This document shows positions 6,402 through 63,535 of a DNA stretch of 64,000 nt, in pieces (position 1 is the stretch's first letter; each line of letters opens with the position of its first letter). The DNA comes from an uncultured Muribaculaceae bacterium (GTDB taxonomy: Bacteria; Bacteroidota; Bacteroidia; Bacteroidales; Muribaculaceae): the NCBI GenBank assembly GCA_964628205.1, contig CAZVMM010000009.1, positions 2,226 to 66,225 of the forward strand, read 5' to 3'. Position numbers and translations under genes: made by a program. The notes beneath the pieces are model-generated. The model did no database searches and had not been told where the DNA came from. It saw only the letters and a program-made list of their open reading frames with translations.

Positions 6402-7298
6402 ATGATGAGAAAAATACTATTCGCATTGGCGTTAGGTTTCTCGTTGAGTGCAATGGGACAGGTACTGACCGTATTGTCTGTTGACAAGGTCAATCTGCCA
6501 GAGCGCGCTACCGTAGCGGCAATCAGCCCGCAAGGCGATTATCTGCTGTTGACAAGCGCGACCAACCGTGGCCTAACCTGGTTCGACCTAACTACAAGCA
6601 AGACCCGCGAGCTGACCACCGCATCCAGCGCCGGGCACAACGTCAAAATCTCACCAGACGGCCAAACGGTCATCTATCGTGAGAGCACAATTAATGATAA
6701 GCACTTGAGGTATTCAACTCTCAAGAGCCTGAATTTGGAATCCGGGACCAGCCAAGTGCTTGTTAAGCCCACACGTGACCTGCAGGGTTATGATGTGGGT
6801 GCGACGAGCGCCGGCATTGTCAACAAGGGCAAGTACAGCAAGAAGTCCACAGGCAAAGACAAAGCTGAGAATCAGCCCGTATTGTCCATCGTTAAGGGCC
6901 AGTTGATGATCACAATCGATGGAAAGACACGAGACTTATCCCCCAATGGACATGGATTCAGCTACATGTGGCCATCCCTGTCACCCGATGGCAATAAGGT
7001 GCTCTTCTATCAGGCTGCTCACGGAGCATACGTCTGCAATCTTGACGGCAGTGGCGTCTGCAAAGTGGGCCAGATGCGCTCACCAGTGTGGTATGACAAC
7101 AACACGATCGTCGGCATGATGGATCAGGACGACGGAGAGTTCATCTATGCTTCGACCATTGTTGCTGCCACCCTCGACGGCAAGTCGCAGGTACTTACCG
7201 ACGGCACCACAATAGCCATGTACCCGCATGCCTGTGCCGGCAAAATCGTCTTCAGCACCCCTGCAGGCGAAGCATTTATTATTAATGTGACTAAATGA
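6402..7298 (+). CDS. secreted TolB-like (PD40/WD40-like) beta-propeller protein
   Basis: The ORF track starts at 6318. ATG 6402 gives the signal peptide MMRKILFALALGFSLSAMGQ. PD40-like SPDG repeats are present (ISPDGQTVIY, LSPDGNKVLFY). The stop overlaps the next start (ATGA). Confidence 0.7.
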   Translation: MMRKILFALALGFSLSAMGQVLTVLSVDKVNLPERATVAAISPQGDYLLLTSATNRGLTWFDLTTSKTRELTTASSAGHNVKISPDGQTVIYRESTINDKHLRYSTLKSLNLESGTSQVLVKPTRDLQGYDVGATSAGIVNKGKYSKKSTGKDKAENQPVLSIVKGQLMITIDGKTRDLSPNGHGFSYMWPSLSPDGNKVLFYQAAHGAYVCNLDGSGVCKVGQMRSPVWYDNNTIVGMMDQDDGEFIYASTIVAATLDGKSQVLTDGTTIAMYPHACAGKIVFSTPAGEAFIINVTK

Positions 7299-10200
7299 TG
7301 ACCGCTATGAAAAAGATAATATTACTTGCCGTAGCCGCCATCATGGCAGCAGGCACAATGCAGGCCAAGACAGCCGACGAGATCCGCATCTACCTGAATC
7401 CAGGTCATGGCAGCTGGGGACCGAATGACCGCCCGATGGCCACCATCCCCTACCCCAACCTGCCCGAAACCGGCCGTCCTGACACGAACGGTTTCTATGA
7501 GTCGAACACCAATTTGTGGAAATCCATTCAGACCCGTGCAACCCTGATCAAAATGGGTGTAAAGGCCGATAACATCACCATGTCGCGGTGGTTCAATGGC
7601 CCATATCCCTATGTGTCAGGAGCACCCGATGCCGAAATCTACAACCGTCCCTTGTCAGAAATCTGTGAAGAGGTGGAAGTGGGCAATTATGACATGTTCC
7701 TGTCTCATCACTCTAATGCGTCGACCGACGGCACCGCGACCAATTATCCGCTGATACTGTATCGCGGCAAGGATGGCTCAGGTGGCGACTATGCCGCCGG
7801 CAGCCGCGACATGGCTCAGGTGTGCTGGCCGTTATTCTACACCAACGAGATTGACGTGATGAACTACTATGGGCCCGGCAACCCCAACATCAGGGGAGAT
7901 ATCGACTTTTATGGCAGTTCATCGACCCGTGTTGACCCGAATACAGGAAATGCCTATACCGGTTATCTGGGCGTGCTCAAGCATGGTGCTCCCGGGTTCT
8001 TGATTGAGGGTTATTTCCACACTTATCAGCCTGCACGACACCGTGCGCTGAATATTGACTACTGCCATCAAGAGGGTGTGCGTATCGCACGTGGTATCGG
8101 CCAGTACTTCGGTCTTAATCCCGAGACAACAGGCTATATCATGGGTAGCGTGAAAGACGTTCACAACCACTTGATTCACAATCTGTACAAGTACAGCGCT
8201 GGTAGTGTTGACCAGTGGGCTCCCATTAATGGGGCCACGGTAACCCTGTATAAGGGAGGAGACCTGGTCGACAGCTACAAGACCGACGAGTTGTATAATG
8301 GTGTCTTCGTGTTTGAGAACTTGGAACCGGGGACCTACACGATAAGCGTGGAAGCAGAGGGCTTCAAGCCACTGGGCGAATACACTGCAGCAACCGTTGA
8401 CGGGCAGTGGCAGAACCTCATATCTCAGGCGGCAGGCCCCATTGTTGTCGAGGCCAATAAAACGTCCTACGCGATGCCCCTGCTCGAGGCCACCGACTAT
8501 GAGATTCCCACCGACTTGTATCCCAACTATCCAGAGCCTGAATTGCCAGGCTATGTGTGCGCACCGGGAGAATTGTATCTGGAACATGACAACGGCACAG
8601 AGTATGACCTGGAAGGAACCATCAAGCGAATGCTCGTCCGTGGCGACAGCACAATCGTGCTCACCAATGGTCAGGGCGGTATGCCTCACGTCTACTTGAT
8701 CAACAATGTCGACAAGGTCATTATCAAGCAGTTGAGTATCAATGGTATTGCCGAGAGCGAACCCGATAACGCCGGATTCTATAGCCGATTGAACGACATC
8801 AGTTTCACCGCCGACGGACTACTCGTGGGCATGAATAGTGTTATGACCCAGTATAGCGGCGATCAGGTTGACGAAGGATTTACCCGAGGCACGCTGCGTC
8901 TGTTTAAGTGGGCCGACTTTGATAGCGATCCAGTCCAGTGGGTAAGCACACAGAGTTCAGCCAACTTCTATCGTTTCCGTCCCCAGGCACTGACCATCGA
9001 CGGCCCGTCGGATGACTGCTTGGTAACGATTATCGGCACCAATGCCAGCAGCACCGTAGGTGGCATGAGGTTCCTGAAACTCGCCATTACCAGCGACCAA
9101 ATTTCCAGCACGATTTACACAGAGAAGACCATCAGCGCTAACAGCAACTTCACATTGCCCAAGGTGGGTGAACCCGTCTTGACCTTGTCACCACGGAGCG
9201 ATGATAACGTTGTGCTTGATGGTGCCGTGACGCTGCCGTTCGAGGTTGCCACAGCTACTGCCAACGGTGTTGACAGCGAAGTTGTCGGCCGCATGCAGGG
9301 CGATGAGGACGATGCGGCAGCAGTGGGCGTGTCCTTCTTCAAGTATGCTCAGCACCAGTACATGGTGACCCCCTACATGAACGAGAGCGCTGTTGGCGGC
9401 ATCAAGCTCTATGACATCACCGCCGGACTTGACCAGGCCGCACTGGTAAGCACCACTAACACTGACTTGCCCCCTGTGGCATGCGATTTCATGTCGACAG
9501 GTGCTGCCGTCAAGGGTCAGGACATTATCCTGTACCTGATGCAAGACAGCAAGATCACCAAGTGGATGGCAGCTGCTGCATCCCAGCCCGCAGTGCCAGG
9601 CATCTATGCCTACGGCTTGGATGCTGTTGCCGATGGTGACACCTATTGCTTTACCTTCAATGCTAATAGTGCCGCCGAGCAGGCGTACATTAGTCTCATG
9701 GATGCCGATGGCAACGTCGTCGCCACTATCCCGGTGCCCGATGTTGTAGAGGGCGCGAACAGCATAACCGTTGATATGAATGATATTGATGCCGAGCCGG
9801 GAGCCGAACTCACGTGGACCGTGACGCTCGAGGGCAAGGACATCAACACCATCACCCGCATCAATCCGCTGGTCGAGACCTACGAAGGACAACTCTTTGT
9901 CGCTGTCGACAAGTCGCCCTGCAGCCCTGCAATGGGAACTATCTATGCCGGCAACCGAACGGGTAGCGGCAGCGCCACCAACGGCGTGTACGTCTGTGAT
10001 GCCATGGGTCAGCGCGTGAGTGGAGACCTGTACCGTGGAGGACACTCCTGGAGCAGCAATTACCGCATGGCAGTGGACACTCAGGGTAAACTCTATGTGC
10101 CCGATTGGGGCGACGGCACCTCGGGCGTATACATTGCCGAACCCGACAACATCGACGGCGATTGGACAGAATTCTTTATTGGCACACGCCAGAGTAGCGG

Positions 10201-11035
10201 TCTGATAGTCAATGATGGGCAGAATGTCGGTTCGTCGACACCGGGCGTAGCTATTGGTGGTAGTGGTGCCGATACAAAGTTGTATGTCTACCTTGAGGAC
10301 TTCGGCAATGGTGTCGGCGTTTACAACATCGGTCAGGGAGATGGCAGTGTGTTTGACACATGGAGCACAGCCCCCAGTCAATACTTTGATATCGGCGCAT
10401 GGCAGCTCAACACCAATGGCAACGTGGTTGCTGATGCCCAGGGACGCGGTGTTTGGGTTTCCCAGTATCGCAGTGCCGGCAACAACACTTCTGGTGTGCC
10501 CTCGCTGATGTTTGTTGATAGTGATGGTAATGTGACGTTCAACTCAGGCCGTTCACCCTATATCGACATGCTCAACGGTAGTGACCGAGCTGGCTTTGCC
10601 GTCAATGACGCGTGCGACCTGCTTGTGATTCAAGACGGCAGCGGCATGTTGCAGTTCTTTGACCTGACATGGGACGGCACCACACCCGAGATTACGCCCA
10701 AGTACTCGTTCAAGGCCGACGCACGCAATAGTGCCGGATCGATTTTCCAGATGGCATTTGACTACGGCGGCAACTTAGTGTGCGCCGGCAGCAATATTGG
10801 CATTTACTCGCTGCCCGGAGGTGACAATATCCACACCACACCCGCTTGTGGCCAGATGGCTATCGTCAAGGTTCCCACCGCTGTCATCGAGACTCGTGAT
10901 AATGCTAAGGTAGTGGTGAATGAACGTTACTATGACTTGCGTGGTATTGAGTATAGCGCACCTGTTGAGGGTGTGACCATCGTTGTCAGGACCTATAGCG
11001 ACGGTACCACCAGTAGCGTGAAGATTATCAAGTAA
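7295..11035 (+). CDS. large secreted protein: N-acetylmuramoyl-L-alanine amidase (Amidase_3-like) + CarboxypepD_reg-like + propeller-like repeats + T9SS-type C-terminal sorting domain
   Basis: 1246 aa with signal peptide MKKIILLAVAAIMAAGTMQA (alternative start 7307). Amidase_3-like Zn-ligand contexts NPGHGS, YESNTNL, SHHSNAS. CarboxypepD_reg-like GATVTLYK...GVFVFENLEPGTYTISVEAEGFKP. C-terminal ...YYDLRGIEYSAPVEGVTIVVRTYSDGTTSSVKIIK resembles a T9SS CTD. Confidence 0.75.
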   Translation: MMTAMKKIILLAVAAIMAAGTMQAKTADEIRIYLNPGHGSWGPNDRPMATIPYPNLPETGRPDTNGFYESNTNLWKSIQTRATLIKMGVKADNITMSRWFNGPYPYVSGAPDAEIYNRPLSEICEEVEVGNYDMFLSHHSNASTDGTATNYPLILYRGKDGSGGDYAAGSRDMAQVCWPLFYTNEIDVMNYYGPGNPNIRGDIDFYGSSSTRVDPNTGNAYTGYLGVLKHGAPGFLIEGYFHTYQPARHRALNIDYCHQEGVRIARGIGQYFGLNPETTGYIMGSVKDVHNHLIHNLYKYSAGSVDQWAPINGATVTLYKGGDLVDSYKTDELYNGVFVFENLEPGTYTISVEAEGFKPLGEYTAATVDGQWQNLISQAAGPIVVEANKTSYAMPLLEATDYEIPTDLYPNYPEPELPGYVCAPGELYLEHDNGTEYDLEGTIKRMLVRGDSTIVLTNGQGGMPHVYLINNVDKVIIKQLSINGIAESEPDNAGFYSRLNDISFTADGLLVGMNSVMTQYSGDQVDEGFTRGTLRLFKWADFDSDPVQWVSTQSSANFYRFRPQALTIDGPSDDCLVTIIGTNASSTVGGMRFLKLAITSDQISSTIYTEKTISANSNFTLPKVGEPVLTLSPRSDDNVVLDGAVTLPFEVATATANGVDSEVVGRMQGDEDDAAAVGVSFFKYAQHQYMVTPYMNESAVGGIKLYDITAGLDQAALVSTTNTDLPPVACDFMSTGAAVKGQDIILYLMQDSKITKWMAAAASQPAVPGIYAYGLDAVADGDTYCFTFNANSAAEQAYISLMDADGNVVATIPVPDVVEGANSITVDMNDIDAEPGAELTWTVTLEGKDINTITRINPLVETYEGQLFVAVDKSPCSPAMGTIYAGNRTGSGSATNGVYVCDAMGQRVSGDLYRGGHSWSSNYRMAVDTQGKLYVPDWGDGTSGVYIAEPDNIDGDWTEFFIGTRQSSGLIVNDGQNVGSSTPGVAIGGSGADTKLYVYLEDFGNGVGVYNIGQGDGSVFDTWSTAPSQYFDIGAWQLNTNGNVVADAQGRGVWVSQYRSAGNNTSGVPSLMFVDSDGNVTFNSGRSPYIDMLNGSDRAGFAVNDACDLLVIQDGSGMLQFFDLTWDGTTPEITPKYSFKADARNSAGSIFQMAFDYGGNLVCAGSNIGIYSLPGGDNIHTTPACGQMAIVKVPTAVIETRDNAKVVVNERYYDLRGIEYSAPVEGVTIVVRTYSDGTTSSVKIIK

Positions 11036-53465: not shown

Positions 53466-55295
53466 TTAACGATGGGCGGCAATGCGCCAGATGGTGCCCT
53501 CGATGAGCGAGCAGTAGACGTCGCCAGTCGTTGGATCCACTTCAAAGCCGTTGACCTCGCTGGTACCCAGGCGATAGGTATATTCCAGCTGATGGGTCTT
53601 GGCGTTCACGACCGCCAGCATGCCACGGCGTGAGCCGCAGTAGATCAAGCCATCATGCTCGAGGATGATGCAGGGGGCGTGCTCATAGCCGAAGCCCAAA
53701 TCGACCTGCCACAAGAACTGATATTGCTCCCCAGTGCTCATGGCCACGAGCGTGCCGTCCATGGTCTTGGCATAGGCCACCTCACCGTCAGCGCTGCGGC
53801 CCAGGCTCTCTCGCACCTTGTTCTCGTTCTTCACGCGCCACAGTTGGGCGCCACTGTGGCGGTCGATGGCGGTCGTGTAGCGGTCAGGGGCGACGATGAC
53901 CACACGATCGGGCGTGACGACGGGCACCACATTGCCGGGGCTGTAGAGTCGAGCGGTTCGGCCATTGTCCCACTGCCATTTCATGGTCCCCGTTCGATGG
54001 TCGAGGCATCGCAGCCGAGTGTCCCACGCGCCAAAGATAACATCACTGCCAGCGATGACAGGCGCTGCCTGACAATAGTTGCCGATGCTATCGAAATGCC
54101 ACAACAGACGATGCCGCTTCACATCCCACGCCTGGAACGTTTTGTAACCGCCCTGGTACAAGATACCGTCACGGACCACACCGTCGGCAACATAGGGGCC
54201 ATCGGCCTGAAACTGCCACTGGGGCTTGCCGGTCTTCTTATCGAGCCAGATGAGGCGCTTGTCGCTCGTGGGCAGCACCACATACCGGCCGTCCACTGCG
54301 GGACGCGAAAACAGCATGGCACCAGTCTTGTACTGCCAGCGCACCTGGCCCGTGACCTTGTCCACCGCTTTGCAATAGCCCAGCGAATTGCCGTAGTACA
54401 GATTCTTGCCGTCCACACCTACGCGGGTAAAGATGGACGCATTGTCGGCCACAACACGCTGAATGGTGACACCGCCAGGCACCGCGGGAGTCTCCTGAAC
54501 GCAGGGGCTGTCGTGATAATCAAGATTGATGCGATAGGAGAACATCACCTCGGGGTCTTTCCCGATCACCTTATTAAATACATATATCCACTGACGGTCT
54601 AGGTCGATGGTCATCAGGGTGTAACCATAGTCGCCACCGCCCATGTCCAGGGCCCGCACAATCACGCCGTTGATGCCGTCGGTCTCATAGAGACGCCAGC
54701 GGTGATAGTGTCCGCACTGATGGGTGACCACGGGATACTTCTTGAGCACATCGACATAGGCGCGGTAATTGTCCAAATCATCGAGAATGGGATAATGGTT
54801 CACGCTGAGCACCCGCATGCCAGGCCCCACCATGACGTTAAGCGTGCTGTCGAGCCACAGCAGGTCTTCCTGCTTGATGTGCCCGTCACCCATTTTCATG
54901 AACGGGCCGCAATTCATTCCCACGACCACCAGGCTATCGATTGTGAACACAAATCGGTCGCTGCCCCACAGGTCATTGAAGGTTTTGCAAGCGCTCTGGC
55001 TCCAGTTGTTCTCGTGATTGCCAGGAATAACATACAGGGGATGGCAGACGCCATCGAGGATGCCCTTTACATTACGCAACTGCTCATCACTACCCTCATC
55101 GGTGAGGTCGCCCGTCATGAGCACCGCATCGACATCTGTAGCATTGATCTCGGCCACGGCGTCTCGCAGTTTGGCCTCGTTGGTATTGCCGGGATTGACA
55201 TGGATATCGCTGAGGATAGCCAATCGGACCACCCCACCCTGCATGGCCAGCGACAGCGTGAGCACGATGGCCAGTAAAGATATCATACGTTTCAT
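53466..55295 (-). CDS. secreted calcineurin-like metallophosphoesterase fused to a PQQ/BamB-like beta-propeller
   Basis: 609 aa with signal peptide MKRMISLLAIVLTLSLAMQ. All five phosphoesterase motifs are present (SDIH, TGDL, GNHEN, NHYP, CGHYH). Followed by repeated ...G..RWQ/ WQF/ LWHF/ KWQW propeller blades. Confidence 0.85.
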   Translation of the reverse strand: MKRMISLLAIVLTLSLAMQGGVVRLAILSDIHVNPGNTNEAKLRDAVAEINATDVDAVLMTGDLTDEGSDEQLRNVKGILDGVCHPLYVIPGNHENNWSQSACKTFNDLWGSDRFVFTIDSLVVVGMNCGPFMKMGDGHIKQEDLLWLDSTLNVMVGPGMRVLSVNHYPILDDLDNYRAYVDVLKKYPVVTHQCGHYHRWRLYETDGINGVIVRALDMGGGDYGYTLMTIDLDRQWIYVFNKVIGKDPEVMFSYRINLDYHDSPCVQETPAVPGGVTIQRVVADNASIFTRVGVDGKNLYYGNSLGYCKAVDKVTGQVRWQYKTGAMLFSRPAVDGRYVVLPTSDKRLIWLDKKTGKPQWQFQADGPYVADGVVRDGILYQGGYKTFQAWDVKRHRLLWHFDSIGNYCQAAPVIAGSDVIFGAWDTRLRCLDHRTGTMKWQWDNGRTARLYSPGNVVPVVTPDRVVIVAPDRYTTAIDRHSGAQLWRVKNENKVRESLGRSADGEVAYAKTMDGTLVAMSTGEQYQFLWQVDLGFGYEHAPCIILEHDGLIYCGSRRGMLAVVNAKTHQLEYTYRLGTSEVNGFEVDPTTGDVYCSLIEGTIWRIAAHR

Positions 55296-55324
55296 CAGCT
55301 TCAGAGGGTGATTAAGGATTGATG

Positions 55325-56485
55325 TTAAAGTTTCTCGACGACATCATTTTCTCCACACGGCATCGTGATGGTGCTGTTGTAGAGCGGGAAGAGCGCGTTC
55401 ACCTGATAGGTGGTGCGCTGTTGCTCCAAGGGGATAAACACGCTGACCTTCCCCTTGCTGTCGGTTCGGGTCTTTACGCCTCCCACCTGGATTGGAGAGT
55501 TGGGGATGAAGGATTCGGTCTCACGGTCCCATAAACCGAAACTCACGTTGCCATATACCTGAACGTCACGATAAATGTTCACGTTCATGTCGCGAGACAG
55601 CTCCATCATCGTGTCAATCGGCATAAAATCAGGGCAGTTGACCGTCACGTGGACCGAGTGATTCAAGAAATGCTGCGGAATGTTGGTGAAAATGGCCGCA
55701 TCGTCGAGCGAGACGATGGTGTCGGTCTTAGACTCATTATCCAGTTCCAGCATGACTACGGCATCGCGCAGCGGCGGCAACTCATTGTTGTGGTAAGAGG
55801 CCTCCCGCAGGCGCAGGGTCGCGTCGACAGGCCTGAAATGGTACCAAGCGCCGAATATCGCCATCACAACCGCTAGCAATCCCAGAATAGAGAAGATGAG
55901 TTGCCTCAATAACTGCCGCTTGTGGCGCTGCCAGATGGAATCAAACTCGACATCTAGCAGTTTGGATACCAGCTGGACGTAAGCCCGCTCGCGGTTAATC
56001 CAAGCCAACTTGTAATTCTTCTCGTTAACATTGGCTCCCAAAATTTCTTGCAGGCCTAGCCGCTCGGTGACAGGATGGAAACACTCCGTGTCTGGGTCTC
56101 CACTATGCGGAGTGCCGTCAACAATGAAGAAATGGATGTTTTCGGTACGCCCCAAACTGTGGAAAAACTCAATCTCCTTGCCCACCCACTCGGACTTGGC
56201 CGAATTGGGCGAACAGATGACGATCAGGTTTCTTGAAGCCATAAGGCGCTGCTTCAGCTCATCGCTCAGTCCGCCGGGCTGTATGTCGGTGGGCGCGAAG
56301 AAGACGGGGCGGATAGGGGTGCGCTTCCATCCGCGCTGGTTACACATTGTAGCCGGCATGCGGTAGTGCTCCAGCTTGCGCTGCAACCTCTTGCCCCACT
56401 GGGTGTCCCTGGAGTTGTAACTGATGAAGGCAAAATACTTGAACTCATGCCCAGATGTGATATGGCCTTGTTCCTTCTCAATCAT
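55325..56485 (-). CDS. single-pass membrane TIR-domain protein (cytoplasmic TIR, periplasmic beta-sandwich-like C-terminal domain)
   Basis: 386 aa. TIR start FKYFAFISYNSRD. SPNSAKSEWVGKEIEFF matches the SxxSxWxxxE motif (E104, codon 56174..56176). TM LIFSILGLLAVVMAIFGAWY (55841..55900) is preceded by the K/R-rich WQRHKRQLLRQ. Confidence 0.85.
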   Translation of the reverse strand: MIEKEQGHITSGHEFKYFAFISYNSRDTQWGKRLQRKLEHYRMPATMCNQRGWKRTPIRPVFFAPTDIQPGGLSDELKQRLMASRNLIVICSPNSAKSEWVGKEIEFFHSLGRTENIHFFIVDGTPHSGDPDTECFHPVTERLGLQEILGANVNEKNYKLAWINRERAYVQLVSKLLDVEFDSIWQRHKRQLLRQLIFSILGLLAVVMAIFGAWYHFRPVDATLRLREASYHNNELPPLRDAVVMLELDNESKTDTIVSLDDAAIFTNIPQHFLNHSVHVTVNCPDFMPIDTMMELSRDMNVNIYRDVQVYGNVSFGLWDRETESFIPNSPIQVGGVKTRTDSKGKVSVFIPLEQQRTTYQVNALFPLYNSTITMPCGENDVVEKL

Positions 56486-56504
56486 AGCGATTTCGGTTAA
56501 AACG

Positions 56505-58016
56505 TTAAAGCGACATCTGTTTCCAGTCGTCGTTAGTATAAGATGTGAAGGTCATCGGGGTCTGGCTTTTGCCGAGAGGCAAAGTGCGGGCCACATTTTT
56601 GACATTGTTGTTGATATCCTTGGCCAGCTTGCCTAACGTGACCATGCCTTGGGTCTCCTGCAACTCTTTGAGGAGATAATAGGTGAAGAGGCCGTGCCCC
56701 TCTTCAGGATAGTTCTGCGCCGTTTCATTACCATGAGTTGCCGCCAGGACAATCATGTTACCCACGGTGGGTTTGGCATCCTGTGCCTCGACCTCAACTG
56801 CCCGCTCGACCACGAGCGACTCGTTATCACGATTGACCCCGCTGAAGCAGGCATCAAGAAAGACCGTGACGTTGGCAAATCCCAATCGGCCCAACTTGTC
56901 ATAAAACTCATCGAGGGCAATACCGTGGTTAGGCTTGGAGCCCTTAACATCAGTAGGCAGCAAGTAGGACTTGTTGTTGTCCTGAATATCGGGCACGCCA
57001 TGCCCAGCATAGAAGACGACCAGTTTCTTGAGACGGCGGTCAGGCACTTCGTTACACCAGTCACCAAGCAATTCCTCGAGGATGATGTGCTTAGTGGCAT
57101 CGAGAGAGACCATGATATTGGAAGCGGGGATACCGAGCGTCTTCTTGCAGTACTCGGCAAAAACGGTGGCATCGTTTTGGGCATAGGGCACAGCTGCCAC
57201 GTGGCGATAGTTCTCGTTACCGATGATCAGGGCATAGGTATCATTGCGTACGACAAGAGGTTCGGGGATTTCAATATCGACGGCCGACACACGCTCCTGC
57301 ATCAGCGCCGGACTGGATTTCTTGAGAAACAGCGCGACGGATTCCTGACTCAAGCCATACTCAGCACAATTCTCGGTGTTGATGTTGCGGGGCAGATTAC
57401 GTATCTCTCCCTTGTAATAGATGTGCTTGGCCCGACCGTCCTCCATGACCTCGGTGGCGAAAACGGCTTTGCCCAACATGGCGTTATTTCCCACTTCGAT
57501 CACGTTGAGGTTGGTACAGGAGAGGAAGGCCATGTCCTCGACACGCGTCAGGCTGGGAATGCTGACCGACCGCAGCGACGAGCAATTGGCAAAGGCGACC
57601 GTGGCGATACGCTTCACATAAGGCGGCATGGAGAAATTGAAGAGGTTGCGGCAATTCAGGAAAGCGCCCCACCCGATCTCATTGATCATCGCGTATTGGA
57701 TTTCAACTGTGTTCAGTTCTTCACAATTGGCAAATGCGCATGAACCGATAGTCCCGATGCCTACACCAATAACCACCTTACGGATGGCAAGATTTTGCTT
57801 GATCCACGGCGCACGGTTGCCGTCCAGGTCGTAGTCAGGCATGGATACCGCATTCTTCTTGGGGGCAAGACTACTTATATATAATGTGCGGCCATCAAAT
57901 GTCCACTCCACATCACCGTTGCATTTTCCCGAAGCGGCCTTGGTGTTCTGCGCCATTGCGGAAAGGAGGCACAACGAGCTGAACAGAATGGTTATTAGCA
58001 AACACTTTTTCATCAT
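56505..58016 (-). CDS. secreted BspA-type LRR (LRR_5) - caspase (peptidase C14) fusion protein
   Basis: 503 aa with signal peptide MMKKCLLITILFSSLCLLSAMAQ. LRR_5 repeats (IGSCAFANCEELNTVEI, IGWGAFLNCRNL, IATVAFANCSSLRSVSIP, EDMAFLSCTNLNVIEV). Caspase dyad contexts VVFYAGHG (H339, 57000..57002) and VFLDACFSG (C390, 56847..56849). Confidence 0.85.
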   Translation of the reverse strand: MMKKCLLITILFSSLCLLSAMAQNTKAASGKCNGDVEWTFDGRTLYISSLAPKKNAVSMPDYDLDGNRAPWIKQNLAIRKVVIGVGIGTIGSCAFANCEELNTVEIQYAMINEIGWGAFLNCRNLFNFSMPPYVKRIATVAFANCSSLRSVSIPSLTRVEDMAFLSCTNLNVIEVGNNAMLGKAVFATEVMEDGRAKHIYYKGEIRNLPRNINTENCAEYGLSQESVALFLKKSSPALMQERVSAVDIEIPEPLVVRNDTYALIIGNENYRHVAAVPYAQNDATVFAEYCKKTLGIPASNIMVSLDATKHIILEELLGDWCNEVPDRRLKKLVVFYAGHGVPDIQDNNKSYLLPTDVKGSKPNHGIALDEFYDKLGRLGFANVTVFLDACFSGVNRDNESLVVERAVEVEAQDAKPTVGNMIVLAATHGNETAQNYPEEGHGLFTYYLLKELQETQGMVTLGKLAKDINNNVKNVARTLPLGKSQTPMTFTSYTNDDWKQMSL

Positions 58017-58027
58017 GCTGGTAATGT

Positions 58028-58885
58028 TTAGAACCTGAATTGCAGGTACACACGACCTGTCTTCTGCTTCATTTTCATCTTGCCGGTGTCCAAGTCATCG
58101 TCCAGGTAAGTGTAATTCAGCTTACCATCGTTGCGGAACTCGTATCCGATGCCGACAAAATTCCATGTCAGATTGCCGCCAAAAGACGTGTACAGGCCAT
58201 GGCCCAGAGCCTTGCCATCAGAAACCTCGCCCTTGTCGACCATCGCTTCACTTATCATCGACAGCTGAACCGTATATCCCACATGGAAGTAGAGTTGCAG
58301 CCTGATATTGTCGGTTCCCCACCGCTCTAGTGAGGTGAAAGGATAGAAAGTGAGCGACGGGCCCACCATCATGCCATAGTCGATGGTCTTCTTCTTGTTA
58401 TGCCAGGGCATGCAACCGATAGAGGATTCTTCGCTATTCTTATAAGACGCAGGGGCGGCCGTTTCCTTATACTGATTGAAATTCAGATCCAGCCAGGTGT
58501 AATCCAGTCCCAGGAACAACACATTGCCGAGCGGGTTCTTGTGGAAATTGAAGGTATGTCCCCACTGCAGGCCAAGTCCCCACTGATTCTGGAACTCATT
58601 GCTGAACGCACCCGAAACTGACGGGAATTCATCAGACGACAGCTTGGTCGTATTGTAACTGATGTTCAGGTATGTGTTTTTACTCCAGATGGAGCGCAAG
58701 CTCGCCATGTAGTCATTCTCCTTCATGGCCTTTCCCTCTTGGGCGATAGTCTCAGCCAGCGTAACCACTCGTGTTGTGTCATCACCGGCAGCGTTGTTTA
58801 CTGAGATGGGAGCCGAAATGCCTTCGTTGGCCGAGATGGCCAGTGCACAAAAGACTGCAATTGCTGAAAAAAAGAATCGTTTCAT
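58028..58885 (-). CDS. outer-membrane beta-barrel protein
   Basis: 285 aa with signal peptide MKRFFFSAIAVFCALAISA. Alternating amphipathic strands (WGLGLQWGHTFNF, IRLQLYFHVGYTVQL, GGNLTWNFVGIGYEF). C-terminal aromatic ...RVYLQFRF. Confidence 0.75.
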   Translation of the reverse strand: MKRFFFSAIAVFCALAISANEGISAPISVNNAAGDDTTRVVTLAETIAQEGKAMKENDYMASLRSIWSKNTYLNISYNTTKLSSDEFPSVSGAFSNEFQNQWGLGLQWGHTFNFHKNPLGNVLFLGLDYTWLDLNFNQYKETAAPASYKNSEESSIGCMPWHNKKKTIDYGMMVGPSLTFYPFTSLERWGTDNIRLQLYFHVGYTVQLSMISEAMVDKGEVSDGKALGHGLYTSFGGNLTWNFVGIGYEFRNDGKLNYTYLDDDLDTGKMKMKQKTGRVYLQFRF

Positions 58886-58908
58886 TGTCGTAATAATTTC
58901 TTTTATGA

Positions 58909-61179
58909 TTAATGATTTAGTGATTGTTTTATCTGTTCGACTGCTTGACGGGCATTATCAGGAATGATGCCGATGGCCTCGAATTGCCTGAAGTCGTCAA
59001 GGAAAGTATCTCTCAATTCTTGTTTATACTCTTGGTAGATCGACATGGCCTGTTCTCGCTCTCCCATGAACAACAACGCCGCAGCCAGATTGGCCCGGAT
59101 GAATGTCTTGGTGCTGTCGATATCCAGCCCGGCACGGGCATATTCAGCGGCCTTGATGAAATTACCCGTCAGCAGGGCATGATTTGACAGGTTGCCGTAG
59201 GAGCGAGCCACATGCGAATTGTAATCCCGGGGCGACAGGCGGGCGAGTTCCTGGTTAATGTCCAGCTCCTCTTGGTAATACCTACCGGCATCGTCCCATT
59301 GGCGAAGCTTATCACAGGCGGTGGCCATGTTGCGCAATAGCTTTGCCTTTTCAGGACGATACGTGTCGGGGTTCAAAATCTCAAGGGCCGAATAGGCATC
59401 CAGAGCGATGCCAAACAGTGTTTTGCTTTTTTCCATTTCATCATCCTGGTAACATCTAACACCCTGCTGATAAGCCCGATCGGCAATCAGTGGCAGATAA
59501 CGCACCGGATTTTCGTAGGCCAGCTGCTTGTATAACTCCAGAGACTCGATAAGAGCACGCTCCCCCTTTTCTGGATCGCTGGTAGCGAAATAGAGGACCG
59601 ACAGGTTGTTGAGGGCGGTTGCCATCATGGGAGCGTAATACTGAGAATCGGCCTCTGAGAGGTGGCGATAGACACCCAGCGACTCGTCAAGCAGGCTGAT
59701 GGCTTGCTCGATATTCAGGTCATTGCGGTAATAGAGCGTGGACAAATTGATGAGTGTTGCCGCGTAGTCGGCCAGATAGGCGCCACTATCAGCCTTGCCC
59801 AACTGCCGGTAGAGCGCCAGTGCCTTGCTGAACATCAGTTCGCTGTCATAGAAACGTCCGCCAGCGGCGCCATAGAGCAGAGCCAGATTATTGAATGTCG
59901 AGGCCACGGCTGGGCCATAAATCTCGGGCATTTCTTGACTGAGCGGCATATAGATGTCCAAGGCATCATTGTAGAGGCGCTCGATGGTGGACAAATCTCG
60001 CGACTCTCTGGAATAGAGCACCGCCAGATTGTTCAGCACCGAAGCCAGCAGAGGTTTGAAGGTCAAAGTGTCAGCCGAGGCCAGACGGCGGTATATGCCA
60101 ATGGCTTCATCGAATAAGGGTTCTGCCATCGACGGTTGTGCCGACTCGGAATAAAGCATGGCTATGTTGTTGAGTGTCCTGGCCAATAGCGGTTCATACC
60201 GCCCGGGGTCCGTCTGGGCCAGGCCACGGGATGCATCGATGGCTTTCCGGTAGTACTGCGCCGCCTTGTCGGCCAGTCCCCGCTGCTGCAGGTAACTGCC
60301 GGCATCGGCTTGCCACTGAGGATTCATGGCGTCTAAGCCGGCTCGTTTCTCGATGTAATATGTTGCGGAATCGTTCTCGTGTGCCAGAGCAAAACGCTGG
60401 AAAAAGCTGAAGCAGTCACGGGCGATGTCCTCGCGCTGGGTTTTCTCAACCATTTCGCTCTTTTCCACCATCTCGCGCGATATCACATTCGCTTCGTGGA
60501 GCTGATTGAGTTCATTGATGCGCTCATTCATGTCGCCCTTGGTCCTGAGCAGGGAGTCGGCACTTGCCAGATTTCCGTTCAAGATAAAATCGCCAACGCG
60601 CCGGTTGAAGTCATCGAGCATGTCATAATCGATGGTAGCATAGTATTCCGCCATTCTGCGCACCAGCATCGCGTTCTTGTCCTGCTGGTCATAAAGGTCC
60701 TGAATCTGCTGCAGATACTGCTGCTGAGAGACCTTGTTCTGCCTTTTCAGCTCATTGATTTCATTTTCCTTCCTATTCAGGTCACGGGTCATGGCTTTGT
60801 TGATCTGGCGCTGTGCGGCCAATTTGTCCTCAAGCAGCTGATCTGGCGTATCCATGACCAGGATGATGGGACTAGTCGAGTAGGTATAGACCTTGGGTGC
60901 CGCATCGGCGTCGACCAGCTGATATCCTTTTTTCCTGACAGACTCTATCTTGAAACTCTTTCCCGGAATCGGGAAGGAGAACGAGCCGTTGCGGTTCTCG
61001 ACAACGACACTGGTTCGTCCCTGGATGTGCACGGTAGCGCCAGTGAGTCCCTGACCTGACTGGTGCCTGCCAGCGACCAGGCGGCCACGTGTTTTCACCA
61101 CCCCGTGCTGGGTCTGTGCCAATGCCCAAGCGCCCACAAATACGCAGATCAGAAACAATATCAGTTTTTTCATATTCAT
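58909..61179 (-). CDS. secreted CarboxypepD_reg-like + coiled-coil + multi-TPR (TPR_12-type) protein
   Basis: 756 aa with signal peptide MNMKKLILFLICVFVGAWALAQ. N-terminal beta-sandwich (GATVHIQGRTSVVVENRNGSFSFPIPGKSFKIESVRKKGYQ). A Q/E-rich coiled coil. At least 8 kinesin-light-chain-like TPRs (ALNNLAVLY..A..IY..L pattern repeated). Confidence 0.85.
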   Translation of the reverse strand: MNMKKLILFLICVFVGAWALAQTQHGVVKTRGRLVAGRHQSGQGLTGATVHIQGRTSVVVENRNGSFSFPIPGKSFKIESVRKKGYQLVDADAAPKVYTYSTSPIILVMDTPDQLLEDKLAAQRQINKAMTRDLNRKENEINELKRQNKVSQQQYLQQIQDLYDQQDKNAMLVRRMAEYYATIDYDMLDDFNRRVGDFILNGNLASADSLLRTKGDMNERINELNQLHEANVISREMVEKSEMVEKTQREDIARDCFSFFQRFALAHENDSATYYIEKRAGLDAMNPQWQADAGSYLQQRGLADKAAQYYRKAIDASRGLAQTDPGRYEPLLARTLNNIAMLYSESAQPSMAEPLFDEAIGIYRRLASADTLTFKPLLASVLNNLAVLYSRESRDLSTIERLYNDALDIYMPLSQEMPEIYGPAVASTFNNLALLYGAAGGRFYDSELMFSKALALYRQLGKADSGAYLADYAATLINLSTLYYRNDLNIEQAISLLDESLGVYRHLSEADSQYYAPMMATALNNLSVLYFATSDPEKGERALIESLELYKQLAYENPVRYLPLIADRAYQQGVRCYQDDEMEKSKTLFGIALDAYSALEILNPDTYRPEKAKLLRNMATACDKLRQWDDAGRYYQEELDINQELARLSPRDYNSHVARSYGNLSNHALLTGNFIKAAEYARAGLDIDSTKTFIRANLAAALLFMGEREQAMSIYQEYKQELRDTFLDDFRQFEAIGIIPDNARQAVEQIKQSLNH

Positions 61180-61195
61180 GAGATAAGGGGTTGTC

Positions 61196-63535
61196 CTAAA
61201 TTATGCCCAAAGAAACATCCACAATATTATAATCATAACTCTTGACCCGCGTCGAGAGTTCTTGCCAAGGTTTAAGGCAACCGTGAAGCATTCTCACCTC
61301 ATTCTTGTAGTCCACGTCGCCATGGTCACGGTAGCCCAGGATCTCGTGCGATGCCACCCAGCGCAGGTGTTCGGTCTGGGCAATCACGTCGAGGACACGT
61401 GTCACTGCCTGGTCGGGGGATGATTCTTGCCACAGATAAGTTGTCTGGTTCACCTCCCTGGACAAGACATGGCTTGTCAGCAGGGCAGCGCGATCATCAC
61501 CGAGGGCCAGCGCCGCCAGCTGCTGCTTGGTCAGCTTGTGGAAACAGTTCTCCATGTTCTGCCGCTGCATGCGCCTTAACTTGGTTATCCCCGTAAGCGT
61601 GGGGCTATACCCCGGATACTCGTCATCGTTGAGCTGCATCAGCCTGCGTTGCTGCTCATCCCAGCTCTCTATTTTCTCTCCAGCAGCGCCTTTCAGGTTA
61701 CGGATGGACTCCTCGTACTTCTCCATAAAAGCGCGCGCCTCGCGGTTGATTGTGTCGCCAACTACACTATCCCAAGTAAAGACCCCACTCAAGGAGCCAA
61801 AACAAGTAATCGGTGCATTGAGGTGCTCGGTCTTGGTAATCGTGTGCTGATGCTGGTGCCCGCCATCGCTGCAGCATTCGGCCGCCCACAAGCGGTTATA
61901 GTGCTCGGCGATGCGTTTCAGATGACCATCATGGTCGCCACAGACGCGCACCAGAATGCGTAAGTGCCTCATGTCCTTACGGTAACGCACCGCCAGCCGC
62001 AGGATCCGCACCGCCAGCGACATGTTAGATTCATCATCATCGAGGGTTATGACAACATAGTTGAGCTTGTCGATGATCTTTTCCACATATTTATAAAAGG
62101 CCACGCTGCCCGTGTCCACGTCATGGAGCAAGATGTGCGTGTTGGCCTGCGACGGTTCTCCGTCAAGCGCTTCACGGCACACGATAGCAGGAGAATTGAA
62201 GGCAAACACCCCCGCATGGGTCATGATGTCCTTATCGACCACATCACAGTGGAAGGGGGCGCGTTGCACATTATCATCAGTGCTGCCGCTCTTGACAAAC
62301 GACCCAAACTCATAGAGAAAGCGTACTGAGTCATAGCCCACCTCGCCAAAGCCGACAACCAAGGCGTTGAAGGCCGACGAAACTGTCGCGTCGTGCTCGA
62401 CATCAACGTAGCTGACAGGGTGCAGGGTCACATCCTGCTTAAGCATCTCTACGCTGATATGTGACGGATCGACTACCCGAACCGTGCAACGCGCGTTATG
62501 CTGCTCATCCTCAATGACACGGTGCATGCTGTTGTAACGCGCCTTGCAGTACAGCGTGACAGGCACGGTAGCGTCACCCACGGTAACGTCCCGCTTCAGG
62601 CATTGCACTATCTTGATGTTGACATCGTCCTTGTCGGTGAGGACAAACATGTGCAAGCTCCCGGTGGTCTTGCGCCGAATGATCCGAGCGAGCTGGTTGA
62701 GGTTGAGCATACGCTTCAGCACATCACTGTATCCTAGGCCGTCCTGTAGCGAAAGCTGAGAGGCGTCAGCATAGGTACCTGTCGTCAGACAGTCGAGCTC
62801 GATCAGGCGCTCCAGGTCATTATCGCGCAGGGAGACAAAATTGAATAGCCGCTCCATGCCATTCTTGACACTGCCGGCATCGCCCTTGTGGTTGGTGCGG
62901 ACAATGATGATGCGGAACGCACCTTCGCGGCCACGGTAATGTTCCTTGATGCTTTGGGCGAGCAGATAGGTGGGTTCGTTCAATCCCCAAAACACAAAAG
63001 TGTCCCGCTTGCCCCCGAGCACGTAAGCCTCGAGAAACATCCTGAAAGCGGCAATGATGTTGTAACCGAAGTGTCTGATCACAAACATCAGAGTGATGAT
63101 CGCTGCCAAGAAGTGTGCCAGCGAGAAAAACAGCATAAAGAGCCAATTGTGGTGAAATGCAGATTGAATGGCCGCCGCATCGCTCTCCAAGAGGAACATT
63201 TCGGTGGAATGGATGATAGCCATCGGCACATTAGTGAGCAGGGACCACCGGCTATGATCGATGTACATGCCGACATCATAAACCACAAACCCTAACAGCC
63301 ATACGACAAAAAAAGAGGTGGTCAGCATCCGGCTGGCCAACCGTGACCAGCGATTATGTCGGCTGCGATAGAGTAAGAGCATCAACAGTATCCCCAAGAT
63401 GACTGCCACCACACCCAACAGACTGCTGCACCGGGCCATATCAATCAGGAACGGGTTTGCGCCATCAGTCTCGAGCTGCTCATGCGGCAGACATGCAAAC
63501 CAGTTGGCTATATTCAATAGAGGGGATAGACTCAT
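61196..63535 (-). CDS. polytopic inner-membrane protein with two Rossmann-like (TrkA-N-like) domains and a RyR-like C-terminal domain
   Basis: 779 aa with about four N-terminal hydrophobic helices (aa 38-155). GxGxxG at aa 395-400 (VVGFGEVG, 62336..62353). C-terminal IAQTEHLRWVASHEILGYRD...LKPWQELS...KSYDYNIVDV resembles the bacterial RyR domain (recollection, not searched). CDS confidence is high; domain calls are moderate. Confidence 0.75.
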   Translation of the reverse strand: MSLSPLLNIANWFACLPHEQLETDGANPFLIDMARCSSLLGVVAVILGILLMLLLYRSRHNRWSRLASRMLTTSFFVVWLLGFVVYDVGMYIDHSRWSLLTNVPMAIIHSTEMFLLESDAAAIQSAFHHNWLFMLFFSLAHFLAAIITLMFVIRHFGYNIIAAFRMFLEAYVLGGKRDTFVFWGLNEPTYLLAQSIKEHYRGREGAFRIIIVRTNHKGDAGSVKNGMERLFNFVSLRDNDLERLIELDCLTTGTYADASQLSLQDGLGYSDVLKRMLNLNQLARIIRRKTTGSLHMFVLTDKDDVNIKIVQCLKRDVTVGDATVPVTLYCKARYNSMHRVIEDEQHNARCTVRVVDPSHISVEMLKQDVTLHPVSYVDVEHDATVSSAFNALVVGFGEVGYDSVRFLYEFGSFVKSGSTDDNVQRAPFHCDVVDKDIMTHAGVFAFNSPAIVCREALDGEPSQANTHILLHDVDTGSVAFYKYVEKIIDKLNYVVITLDDDESNMSLAVRILRLAVRYRKDMRHLRILVRVCGDHDGHLKRIAEHYNRLWAAECCSDGGHQHQHTITKTEHLNAPITCFGSLSGVFTWDSVVGDTINREARAFMEKYEESIRNLKGAAGEKIESWDEQQRRLMQLNDDEYPGYSPTLTGITKLRRMQRQNMENCFHKLTKQQLAALALGDDRAALLTSHVLSREVNQTTYLWQESSPDQAVTRVLDVIAQTEHLRWVASHEILGYRDHGDVDYKNEVRMLHGCLKPWQELSTRVKSYDYNIVDVSLGII

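Follow-up and report, generated by a model that had tools for sequence, protein, structure and literature searches.

We analysed a 64,000-nucleotide stretch of DNA from an uncultured Muribaculaceae bacterium (contig CAZVMM010000009.1, positions 2,226 to 66,225; 'the window' below means this whole stretch), with attention to a minus-strand gene at 55325..56485, an open reading frame (ORF) of 386 amino acids (aa) plus stop that begins with ATG. Its product is a TIR-domain protein with a retained glutamate of the catalytic type, a single transmembrane (TM) helix and a C-terminal tail of two beta-sandwiches, and it is encoded in an operon with an exported TPR protein and a RyR-domain protein. We lean, if not heavily, towards reading it as a receptor-like TIR protein with type II membrane topology, a signal generator that would be gated through its stalk-like tail and read out by RyR-domain proteins. 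The coordinates of the features are collected in Table 1.

The protein belongs to a large and essentially nameless family. Database searches returned more than 3,500 homologues, and the best 120, all of them full-length (62–99 % identity), are unnamed or annotated as 'hypothetical protein'; NCBIfam gave the TIR protein no named-family assignment and PADLOC gave it no system-level assignment. The analysis drew on 65 loci from Bacteroidales genomes of the rumen and gut, with members of the Prevotellaceae, Muribaculaceae and Paludibacteraceae and of Alistipes among them, and most locus and family counts below refer to 63 related loci or diverged relatives, while the alignment of close relatives holds 64 sequences. 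An AlphaFold2 (AF2) model built on the diverse 63-sequence alignment (m53f22440cef6) reached a mean predicted local distance difference test (pLDDT) score of 92.4 and a predicted template modelling (pTM) score of 0.70. It replaced a first run on 46 close homologues (62–70 % identical), in which the tail was modelled well and the TIR domain poorly (pLDDT 55–68).

A sequence-only reading of the window, made without database searches, had proposed a TIR domain with its catalytic Glu in place, followed by one hydrophobic helix with a stretch rich in lysine and arginine (K/R) ahead of it. The peptides and coordinates on which this rested were all correct: FKYFAFISYNSRD is aa 15–27, SPNSAKSEWVGKEIEFF is aa 92–108 and LIFSILGLLAVVMAIFGAWY is aa 196–215 (55841..55900), with QRHKRQLLRQ preceding the helix and 171 aa following it. 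The identity of the N-terminal domain is equally clear. Pfam TIR_2 (PF13676; 39.9 bits, cut-off 28, E 6.8e-10) and ThsB_TIR (30.7 bits, cut-off 21.2, E 4.4e-7) both match above their cut-offs, and the TIR family hidden Markov model also matches 61 of the 63 diverged relatives. The modelled domain (pLDDT 85–96) retrieved the TIR domains of SARM1, RUN1, AbTir, MyD88 and TLR1 in Foldseek, each at a probability of 1.00; target-normalised TM-scores for isolated TIR-domain entries were 0.52–0.74 overall (SARM1 0.65–0.74, AbTir 0.72), and the matches extend to RPP1 and SPARTA TIR-APAZ as well as to the adaptor TIRs MyD88, MAL and TLR. When the family profile was searched against the PDB, it matched AtTIR (E 1.9e-6), L6, ROQ1, RUN1 and the ThsB structure 9uv0; TLR TIRs scored about equally to the plant TIRs and ThsB, and TcpB (4lqc) far more weakly.

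The glutamate itself, E104, stands at W100+4 (codon 56174..56176), five residues into helix alpha-C (model helix 99–110), just where the sequence-only reading had put it. The family motif around it, S-e-W-V-g-k-E-I, aligns with L6 'SKWCLMEL', AtTIR 'SSWCLDEL' and TLR2 'SEWCKYEL', so that E104 itself lines up with the Glu that plant TIR NADases use in catalysis; in L6 'WCLMEL', we take this residue to be the catalytic E135. E104 is invariant in 64/64 close relatives and kept in 59/63 diverged relatives, and its S-x-W-V-G-K-E-I context is invariant. On sequence grounds, we infer the TIR domain to be catalytically competent, i.e. a putative NADase.

Exactly one TM segment is present in 63/63 family members. 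Within the 15 residues flanking it, K/R residues average 4.4 on the N side vs 1.4 on the C side across the family, the N side exceeding the C side in every member, and no N-terminal signal sequence was found in the TIR protein. On account of this charge bias, the lack of a signal sequence and a tail whose fold classes are typical of exported proteins, the topology is predicted to be N-in, C-out, and this prediction of a type II single-pass inner-membrane protein is well supported. Between the TIR domain and the membrane lies a basic juxtamembrane helix that is, column for column, as highly conserved as the TIR domain. It runs on into the TM helix in the model (continuous helix 181–216) and is also conserved in the TIR-TM proteins of Sinorhizobium and Butyrivibrio and in TIR-WD40 relatives.

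The tail had been likened, from its sequence, to a CarboxypepD_reg/Ig-like sandwich, a fold thought to recur at the N-terminus of the neighbouring TPR protein, and both suggestions held up. It was modelled as two all-beta sandwiches (pLDDT about 95–98), the second of them CarboxypepD_reg-like, as judged by Pfam matches in relatives: CarboxypepD_reg (PF13620/PF13715) matches the tails of 9/63 diverged relatives (best E 9.6e-9). The isolated window ectodomain returned no Pfam match, even at E up to 10. When each sandwich was compared by hhalign with the N-terminus of the TPR protein, sandwich 2 proved to have the CarboxypepD_reg motif in common with it (probability 88.6 %, E 2.6e-6), and sandwich 1 showed no similarity to it. 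The closest solved folds to the ectodomain in Foldseek are tandem Ig-like stalk domains, namely those of Gram-positive pilins and the thioester adhesin 6fwv. A search with the first model also retrieved the SusC NTE domain 9hfj and the structures of carboxypeptidases N and D (2nsm and 1qmu), in which a transthyretin-like domain is present; we would tentatively assign these three matches to sandwich 2. A recent duplication as the origin of the two sandwiches was rejected, as hhalign shows no similarity between them. A conserved disulfide as a mark of periplasmic location was likewise dropped, since C284 and C377 did not co-vary in the alignment rows inspected.

A profile search with the tail returned 369 clusters at 50 % identity, and nearly all full-length members have the order TIR, TM helix, tail; one 4816-aa giant protein carries 17 repeats of the sandwich 2 unit. 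By the Nei–Gojobori method, the ratio of nonsynonymous to synonymous substitution rates (dN/dS) is 0.01–0.16 for the TIR part and mostly 0.1–0.4 for the tail, with one pair at 0.50, indicating that both parts are under purifying selection. The ectodomain evolves 3–10 times faster than the TIR domain. Between the window and the syntenic relative L016, for instance, the TIR domains are 80 % identical and the ectodomains 46 %, with DnaK, Udk and LptB at 97, 99 and 91 %, respectively. How common the sandwich fold is among proteins that this organism exports can be seen outside the island too, where an unrelated protein of 1246 aa (7295..11035, plus strand) combines CarboxypepD_reg with FlgD_ig-like domains.

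What follows the TIR domain changes across the subfamily. The same TIR subfamily is found elsewhere fused to a TM helix plus TPRs, to a TM helix plus a propeller, to a TM helix plus a long YD-repeat-like region, to cytosolic WD40 arrays and to an N-terminal nSTAND1. On the Sinorhizobium plasmid pK101b (L073, 6560..9316), TIR, TM helix and TPRs are joined in one chain of 918 aa, and on plasmid pNP243 of Butyrivibrio fibrisolvens (L074, 6983..9427), a single-pass protein of 814 aa has the order TIR, TM helix, propeller-like domain; both are annotated 'TIR domain-containing protein', and proteins of the latter layout also occur in rumen contigs. Because the L073 and L074 proteins share the juxtamembrane helix, the receptor-like architecture extends over at least three phyla. 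The pattern, as far as domain order in these sequences can tell, is that of a constant output domain coupled to exchangeable, putative C-terminal sensor modules. Several distinct TIR genes commonly stand in tandem within one island.

Some relatives depart from this layout. The fragment P0133 has the C-terminal part of an nSTAND1 joined directly to a TM helix and ectodomain, with no TIR domain, and P0151, over the part examined (all but its N-terminal part), likewise aligns without a TIR domain. Five cytosolic TIR/coiled-coil/WD40 proteins of the same TIR subfamily (L075_9, L084_0, L095_2, L105_0 and L147_3; 730–1254 aa) lie beside RyR genes.

The TIR gene is the fifth of six minus-strand genes that follow one another head to tail, 11–29 bp apart (53466..63535). 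In 5′ to 3′ order, these encode a 779-aa multi-TM protein, the TPR protein, a putative outer-membrane barrel, an LRR-caspase, the TIR protein and a phosphoesterase-propeller protein. Four of the six have a signal-peptide-like start, the exceptions being the 779-aa protein and the TIR protein. The TPR protein is identified by Pfam TPR_12 (E 7e-25); the CarboxypepD_reg match at its N-terminus (E 1.5e-3) is below cut-off. A TPR gene of the same family adjoins the TIR gene in 52 of the 63 loci with a median gap of 7 bp, the two genes share a strand in 93/93 cases, and 71/84 members of the TPR family have a hydrophobic N-terminus.

The RyR genes of the same operon provide the strongest lead for the TIR gene, one that the sequence-only reading missed. 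The RyR domain in the window was found at E 1.4e-17 by jackhmmer started from a bona fide RyR protein, aligns with the Bacteroides thetaiotaomicron RyR-like structure 3nrt and forms the C-terminus of the 779-aa protein, where the RyR ligand motif H-x2-W...H...x17-D is kept (HLRW at aa 723). An iterative search recovered 65 RyR-domain ORFs in the related loci, 51 of which retain H-x2-W...H...D. A RyR-domain gene is present in 41/63 TIR loci and adjoins the TIR gene in 20; some relatives have stand-alone RyR proteins of 97 aa beside the TIR gene, which by eye are about 70 % identical to 3nrt. The association also holds in reverse: the small RyR protein was used to fish 80 metagenome loci, and among the 43 of these that span at least 8 kb, 22 held TIR genes, and 39 of 54 TIR ORFs lay within two genes of a RyR gene, 37 of these 39 on the same strand, all of these association counts being drawn from loci fished with one or the other gene. 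According to two preprints of 2026, phage RyR-domain proteins bind 2′cADPR, 3′cADPR and cADPR (cyclic ADP-ribose and its isomers) at nanomolar to sub-micromolar affinity, and their H-x2-W, second His and Asp bind or cleave 2′/3′cADPR (PMC13232231; 10.64898/2026.06.04.730250). In phage RyDEP (H75, W78, H100 and D117) and RyR Tad (H129, W132, H154 and D171), these residues have the same spacing as in the 97-aa proteins; in the RyR domain of the 779-aa protein all four are present too, but three extra residues separate W from the second H. The phage proteins are anti-Thoeris proteins that serve in counter-defence, whereas the genes considered here are chromosomal bacterial genes co-oriented with TIR genes, one of them fused to a multi-TM, Rossmann-like protein, and their products would act as sensors, buffers or off-switches. 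Our literature search found no report linking chromosomal RyR genes with TIR genes.

The 779-aa protein is a candidate reader or effector of the TIR signal. It has predicted TM segments at 37–55, 67–85 and 135–153 and very weak matches to TrkA_N and NAD_binding_7, and a sequence search against the PDB returned a match for its RyR domain only. Judging from the TM prediction and the TrkA_N matches, this protein could be an effector of a channel-like, ligand-gated type. In L001–L007 and L016, the closest relatives in synteny, a 97-aa RyR gene sits between the TIR and phosphoesterase-propeller genes; the window lacks that gene, and a gap of 29 bp (55296..55324) is found in its place. The human-gut metagenome loci L138–L154 contain up to three RyR ORFs and no TIR gene within 10 kb; hence, not all bacterial RyR genes are TIR-linked.

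Table 1. Features of the TIR gene and its operon in the window, with the basis of each assignment
Feature	Coordinates	Strand	Basis
Whole gene: TIR domain, juxtamembrane helix, TM helix and two beta-sandwiches	55325..56485	-	ORF translation, AF2 model
TIR domain, predicted cytoplasmic, aa 15–176	55958..56443	-	Pfam, Foldseek, profile matches, dN/dS
Codon of E104, putative catalytic glutamate, W100+4, helix alpha-C	56174..56176	-	Conservation, alignment
Conserved basic juxtamembrane helix, aa 177–195, LDVEFDSIWQRHKRQLLRQ	55901..55957	-	Column conservation 0.81
Single TM helix, aa 196–215	55841..55900	-	Kyte–Doolittle 19-mer score 2.5
Ectodomain beta-sandwich 1, predicted periplasmic, aa 219–304	55574..55831	-	All-beta model, Foldseek
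Ectodomain beta-sandwich 2, CarboxypepD_reg-like, aa 305–386	55328..55573	-	hhalign, Pfam in relatives, Foldseek
First operon gene: 779-aa membrane protein with N-terminal TM helices, two Rossmann-like regions and C-terminal RyR	61196..63535	-	TM prediction, weak domain matches
RyR (R12-like) domain of the 779-aa protein, aa 704–779 (C-terminal 76 aa)	61199..61426	-	jackhmmer, motif
Exported TPR scaffold protein: signal peptide, weak CarboxypepD_reg-like domain, coiled coil, TPR_12	58909..61179	-	Pfam
Putative outer-membrane beta-barrel, variable accessory	58028..58885	-	Pfam OMP_b-brl E 2.7e-4, below cut-off
Exported BspA-type LRR + caspase (Peptidase_C14), variable accessory	56505..58016	-	LRR_5 E 1.3e-19, Peptidase_C14 E 9.7e-18
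Exported calcineurin-like phosphoesterase + PQQ/BamB-type beta-propeller	53466..55295	-	Adjoins TIR gene downstream

Read as a stalk-gated signal generator, the protein would work as follows. The C-terminal 171 aa, a rigid periplasmic stalk, would engage the co-translated, exported TPR/coiled-coil protein; in the window and six related loci, the exported LRR-caspase and the outer-membrane barrel would also be part of the setting. A change in this extracytoplasmic assembly, whether caused by a phage, by envelope damage or by another trigger, would cluster or re-orient the TM and juxtamembrane helices, and this rearrangement would drive the TIR–TIR association that TIR NADases need. The TIR domain would then cleave NAD+, probably releasing a cyclic-ADPR-type signal, which the RyR-domain proteins of the locus (here the 779-aa protein, in relatives the 97-aa proteins) would read, buffer or degrade. 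Gating from outside the cytoplasm, which the sequence-only reading had already proposed, is plausible given the exported partners and the swapped C-terminal modules.

Among known systems, a close parallel is Thoeris. ThsB proteins (types I–XI) are TIR proteins with a catalytic-type Glu, and the window TIR matches both the ThsB_TIR model and the ThsB structure 9uv0. The window locus also encodes a separate protein with a domain of the type that binds glycocyclic ADPR (gcADPR), binding having been demonstrated for phage proteins only (PMC13232231). In the Thoeris survey consulted, ThsB proteins are treated as cytoplasmic sensors and we found none that is membrane-anchored, whereas the window TIR has a TM anchor, a stalk predicted to be periplasmic and a TPR partner that is exported. 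The 2025 systematic Thoeris survey does not list RyR among effector sensor domains; SLOG, Macro and other known Thoeris effector domains are absent from the locus by Pfam and PADLOC, and PADLOC calls no Thoeris system. By analogy, the protein might be thought of as a Thoeris ThsB joined to a membrane receptor, in a layout resembling an inverted IL-1R/TLR. A membrane-bound TIR of this kind had been called unusual, and in one sense it is, as no characterised example is apparent and our literature search found no described bacterial membrane TIR receptor; the architecture itself, however, is common in genomes, as the 369 ectodomain clusters and the TIR-TM proteins on Sinorhizobium and Butyrivibrio plasmids attest.

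Several observations weigh against a stalk-gated receptor read out through RyR proteins. The window RyR domain (PF02026) scores 22.8 bits vs a Pfam gathering cut-off of 27.4 and is therefore below it (E 1.1e-4), the family of the 779-aa RyR protein occurs in only 15 related loci, and a RyR gene is absent within 10 kb from 22 of the 63 loci. The positive-inside argument for a cytoplasmic TIR domain, on which the sequence-only reading relied, is borne out across the family (63/63) but is weak in the window protein alone (4 K/R on the N side vs 3 on the C side). Gly replaces the Glu in three diverged lineages, P0143, P0212 and P0223 (WVNNGI, FVNGGI and YINAGI), which may be catalytically dead regulatory paralogues, and where the Glu is retained it is necessary but not sufficient for NADase activity; TLR2 has the aligned Glu too. 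TLR TIRs are known as adaptors. Since the folds nearest to the ectodomain are those of stalk domains, its role may be that of a spacer or anchor and not that of a sensor which binds a ligand. PADLOC finds no complete defence system, its only matches being weak ones to ThsB models (best E 1.6e-6). Finally, P0171, a candidate Rosetta-stone fusion of TIR, TM helix, ectodomain and TPR (including the coiled coil), was rejected as a decayed or recombined remnant; it is found on a single Logan contig, with its TIR domain 5′-truncated and sandwich 2 truncated. In its stead, the single-chain TIR-TM-TPR protein of Sinorhizobium counts as evidence for a link between TIR and TPR proteins.

The stalk-like nature of the ectodomain also fits a different account, in which the protein is a membrane-tethered, NAD+-depleting suicide effector whose trigger, such as a phage protein, is cytoplasmic, and the TM helix and stalk serve only to localise or oligomerise it. 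Many bacterial TIRs are abortive-infection NADases, and among relatives of the window protein a cytoplasmic nSTAND1 sensor NTPase stands in front of the TIR domain (P0155; L072, 1231..5092, where TIR, TM helix and ectodomain follow it), beside a SIR2_2 + TIR_2 gene. E. coli TIR systems with TM or TPR components, including one with a TM element, have validated anti-phage function (PMC11350192), as has the two-gene TIR + TPR operon BcTir/Tpr of Bacillus cereus (10.1101/2023.05.26.542521); in PMC11350192 and the available part of the B. cereus report, we found no TIR with a periplasmic domain or exported TPR partner. SARM1, L6, RUN1, ROQ1, RPP1 and AbTir share with the window protein the TIR fold and a helix alpha-C Glu aligned with L6 'WCLMEL', but they are soluble and activated by ARM/SAM, NB-ARC or filament assembly, whereas the window TIR is linked to a TM helix. 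A suicide effector of this kind leaves unexplained why an exported TPR partner should be near-obligatory and translationally coupled, why TPR, propeller or YD-repeat modules take the place of the extracytoplasmic part within one TIR subfamily, and why the ectodomain, itself under purifying selection, diverges 3–10 times faster than the TIR domain. We consider it unlikely, if the most serious of the alternatives to a stalk-gated receptor.

The remaining genes of the island bear on a second alternative, that of a physiological, non-lethal envelope-signalling module acting via an NAD-derived second messenger, in the manner of trans-envelope anti-sigma signalling. The block lies among core chromosomal genes (TamB, Omp85, GlgP, Lon, GyrA, ComEC and DnaK), its relatives are absent from phage and viral collections, and PADLOC finds no known system in it. 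Some related loci contain genes for an ECF-type sigma-70-like protein, an MscS-like channel and a TerB-like protein, and a PrsW-family intramembrane protease is encoded in six loci, directly after the TIR gene in four; a second TIR-TM family is present in five. Against this stand the rapid turnover of gene content between close relatives and the atypical GC content, which is 0.52–0.54 for the six-gene block (0.48–0.55 across 55000..63500) vs 0.59–0.60 in the flanking core genes (DnaK, LptB and GlgP) and suggests acquired or fast-turnover DNA within a core chromosomal region. A phage or plasmid origin was considered and is unsupported, with no relatives in IMG/VR or GenBank phages and plasmid matches confined to distant TIR-TM relatives. 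Caspase, CHAT, nSTAND1 and SIR2-TIR neighbours, hallmarks of conflict systems, likewise argue against housekeeping signalling, as do the TPR and TIR paralogues arranged in tandem arrays in related loci. Taken together, envelope signalling seems to us a little less credible than the suicide effector.

Conflict-type neighbours are represented in the window by the LRR-caspase, which matches the NCBIfam model 'caspase, EACC1-associated type' (E 1.5e-18, below its cut-off) and has a signal-peptide-like N-terminus; a putative periplasmic or surface caspase is encoded, with the barrel, beside the TIR gene (56505..58885, minus strand). A caspase or CHAT gene is found in 10/63 loci, and the outer-membrane barrel and LRR-caspase always occur together in the seven loci that have them (7/63, the window and six related loci). 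The islands share TIR, caspase, CHAT and TPR components with the NTP-dependent conflict systems of Kaur, Burroughs, Iyer and Aravind (nSTAND, caspase/CHAT, TPR and EACC1). They differ in that the window has no NTPase (Pfam and NCBIfam detect no STAND/nSTAND domain in any of the six operon proteins), that only the distant relative P0155 has nSTAND1 and that RyR is unmentioned in that group's paper; moreover, most operon components carry signal peptides and therefore act outside the cytoplasm. The phosphoesterase-propeller protein shows weak likeness to cyclic-nucleotide phosphodiesterases and 'anti-phage phosphoesterase' models and is 78–82 % conserved in relatives; its gene may be the island edge or an operon member.

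Comparison with the animal receptors brings in a third account, in which the TIR domain is a non-enzymatic adaptor that makes TIR–TIR contacts with other TIR proteins of the island, like TLR/MyD88, and the Glu is structural. The model does match the TIR domains of MyD88, MAL and TLRs, several different TIR genes often share one island, and in the three lineages with Gly in place of Glu the rest of the protein is kept. We nevertheless find this account very hard to credit: 59/63 lineages keep the Glu, in a context (S-x-W-V-G-K-E-I) that is invariant, the nucleotide-binding residues of the co-encoded RyR domains are conserved, and the best profile matches include the enzymatic plant TIRs and ThsB, though TLR TIRs score about equally. 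The likeness to TLR/IL-1R is one of parts: the IL-1R ectodomain consists of Ig-like beta-sandwiches (PMC7075850), and the window encodes an LRR protein nearby. The order of those parts is reversed, with the TIR domain N-terminal (15–176), the TM helix at 196–215 and the ectodomain at 219–386 of a type II protein, and the window protein is therefore not a member of the TLR/IL-1R family; homology does not extend beyond the TIR domain, and the LRR of the window is on a separate exported caspase protein. Since the enzyme-type motif is kept, the window TIR most likely signals via a small molecule rather than, as TLR/IL-1R do, through adaptors. The least credible proposal, a host-directed virulence or immunomodulatory factor of the TcpB/TcpC type that would be delivered into animal cells and disturb TLR signalling there, can all but be set aside, for although the organisms are gut and rumen commensals and bacterial Tcp proteins are TIR proteins, the TIR domain lies on the cytoplasmic side of a TM anchor with no secretion signal, the family sits in operons with bacterial TPR and RyR partners, and the profile match to TcpB (4lqc) is far weaker than that to plant TIRs.

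Beyond the stalk-gated receptor itself, we raise, tentatively and as a doubtful proposition, a wider trans-envelope TIR pathway in Bacteroidales, in which an extracytoplasmic assembly of TPR and beta-sandwich parts would switch on a membrane-anchored TIR cyclase, and RyR proteins, including the channel-like multi-TM protein, would read the cyclic-ADPR isomer that it makes. If true, the animal cADPR–ryanodine-receptor axis would have in this pathway its bacterial counterpart and perhaps its evolutionary origin, and the window protein would be the first bacterial TIR receptor sensing outside the cytoplasm. Bacterial TIR signalling (Thoeris and its relatives) has, in the work surveyed, been studied with soluble cytoplasmic sensors, and the authors of the E. 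coli study remarked that bacterial TIR systems seem to lack membrane features of the TLR kind (PMC11350192). A membrane-wired TIR with an exported scaffold would show that outside-in bacterial TIR receptors exist with the logical layout of TLR/IL-1R. The linkage between TIR and RyR genes suggests a host-side role, open to immediate test, for a domain whose binding of TIR-made cADPR isomers was shown in 2026 and for phage proteins only; it also brings the old question of whether RyR R12 domains sense cADPR within reach of a simple bacterial model. Among Bacteroidales of the rumen and gut the family is abundant, and there it may shape resistance to phages or competitors as well as NAD metabolism.

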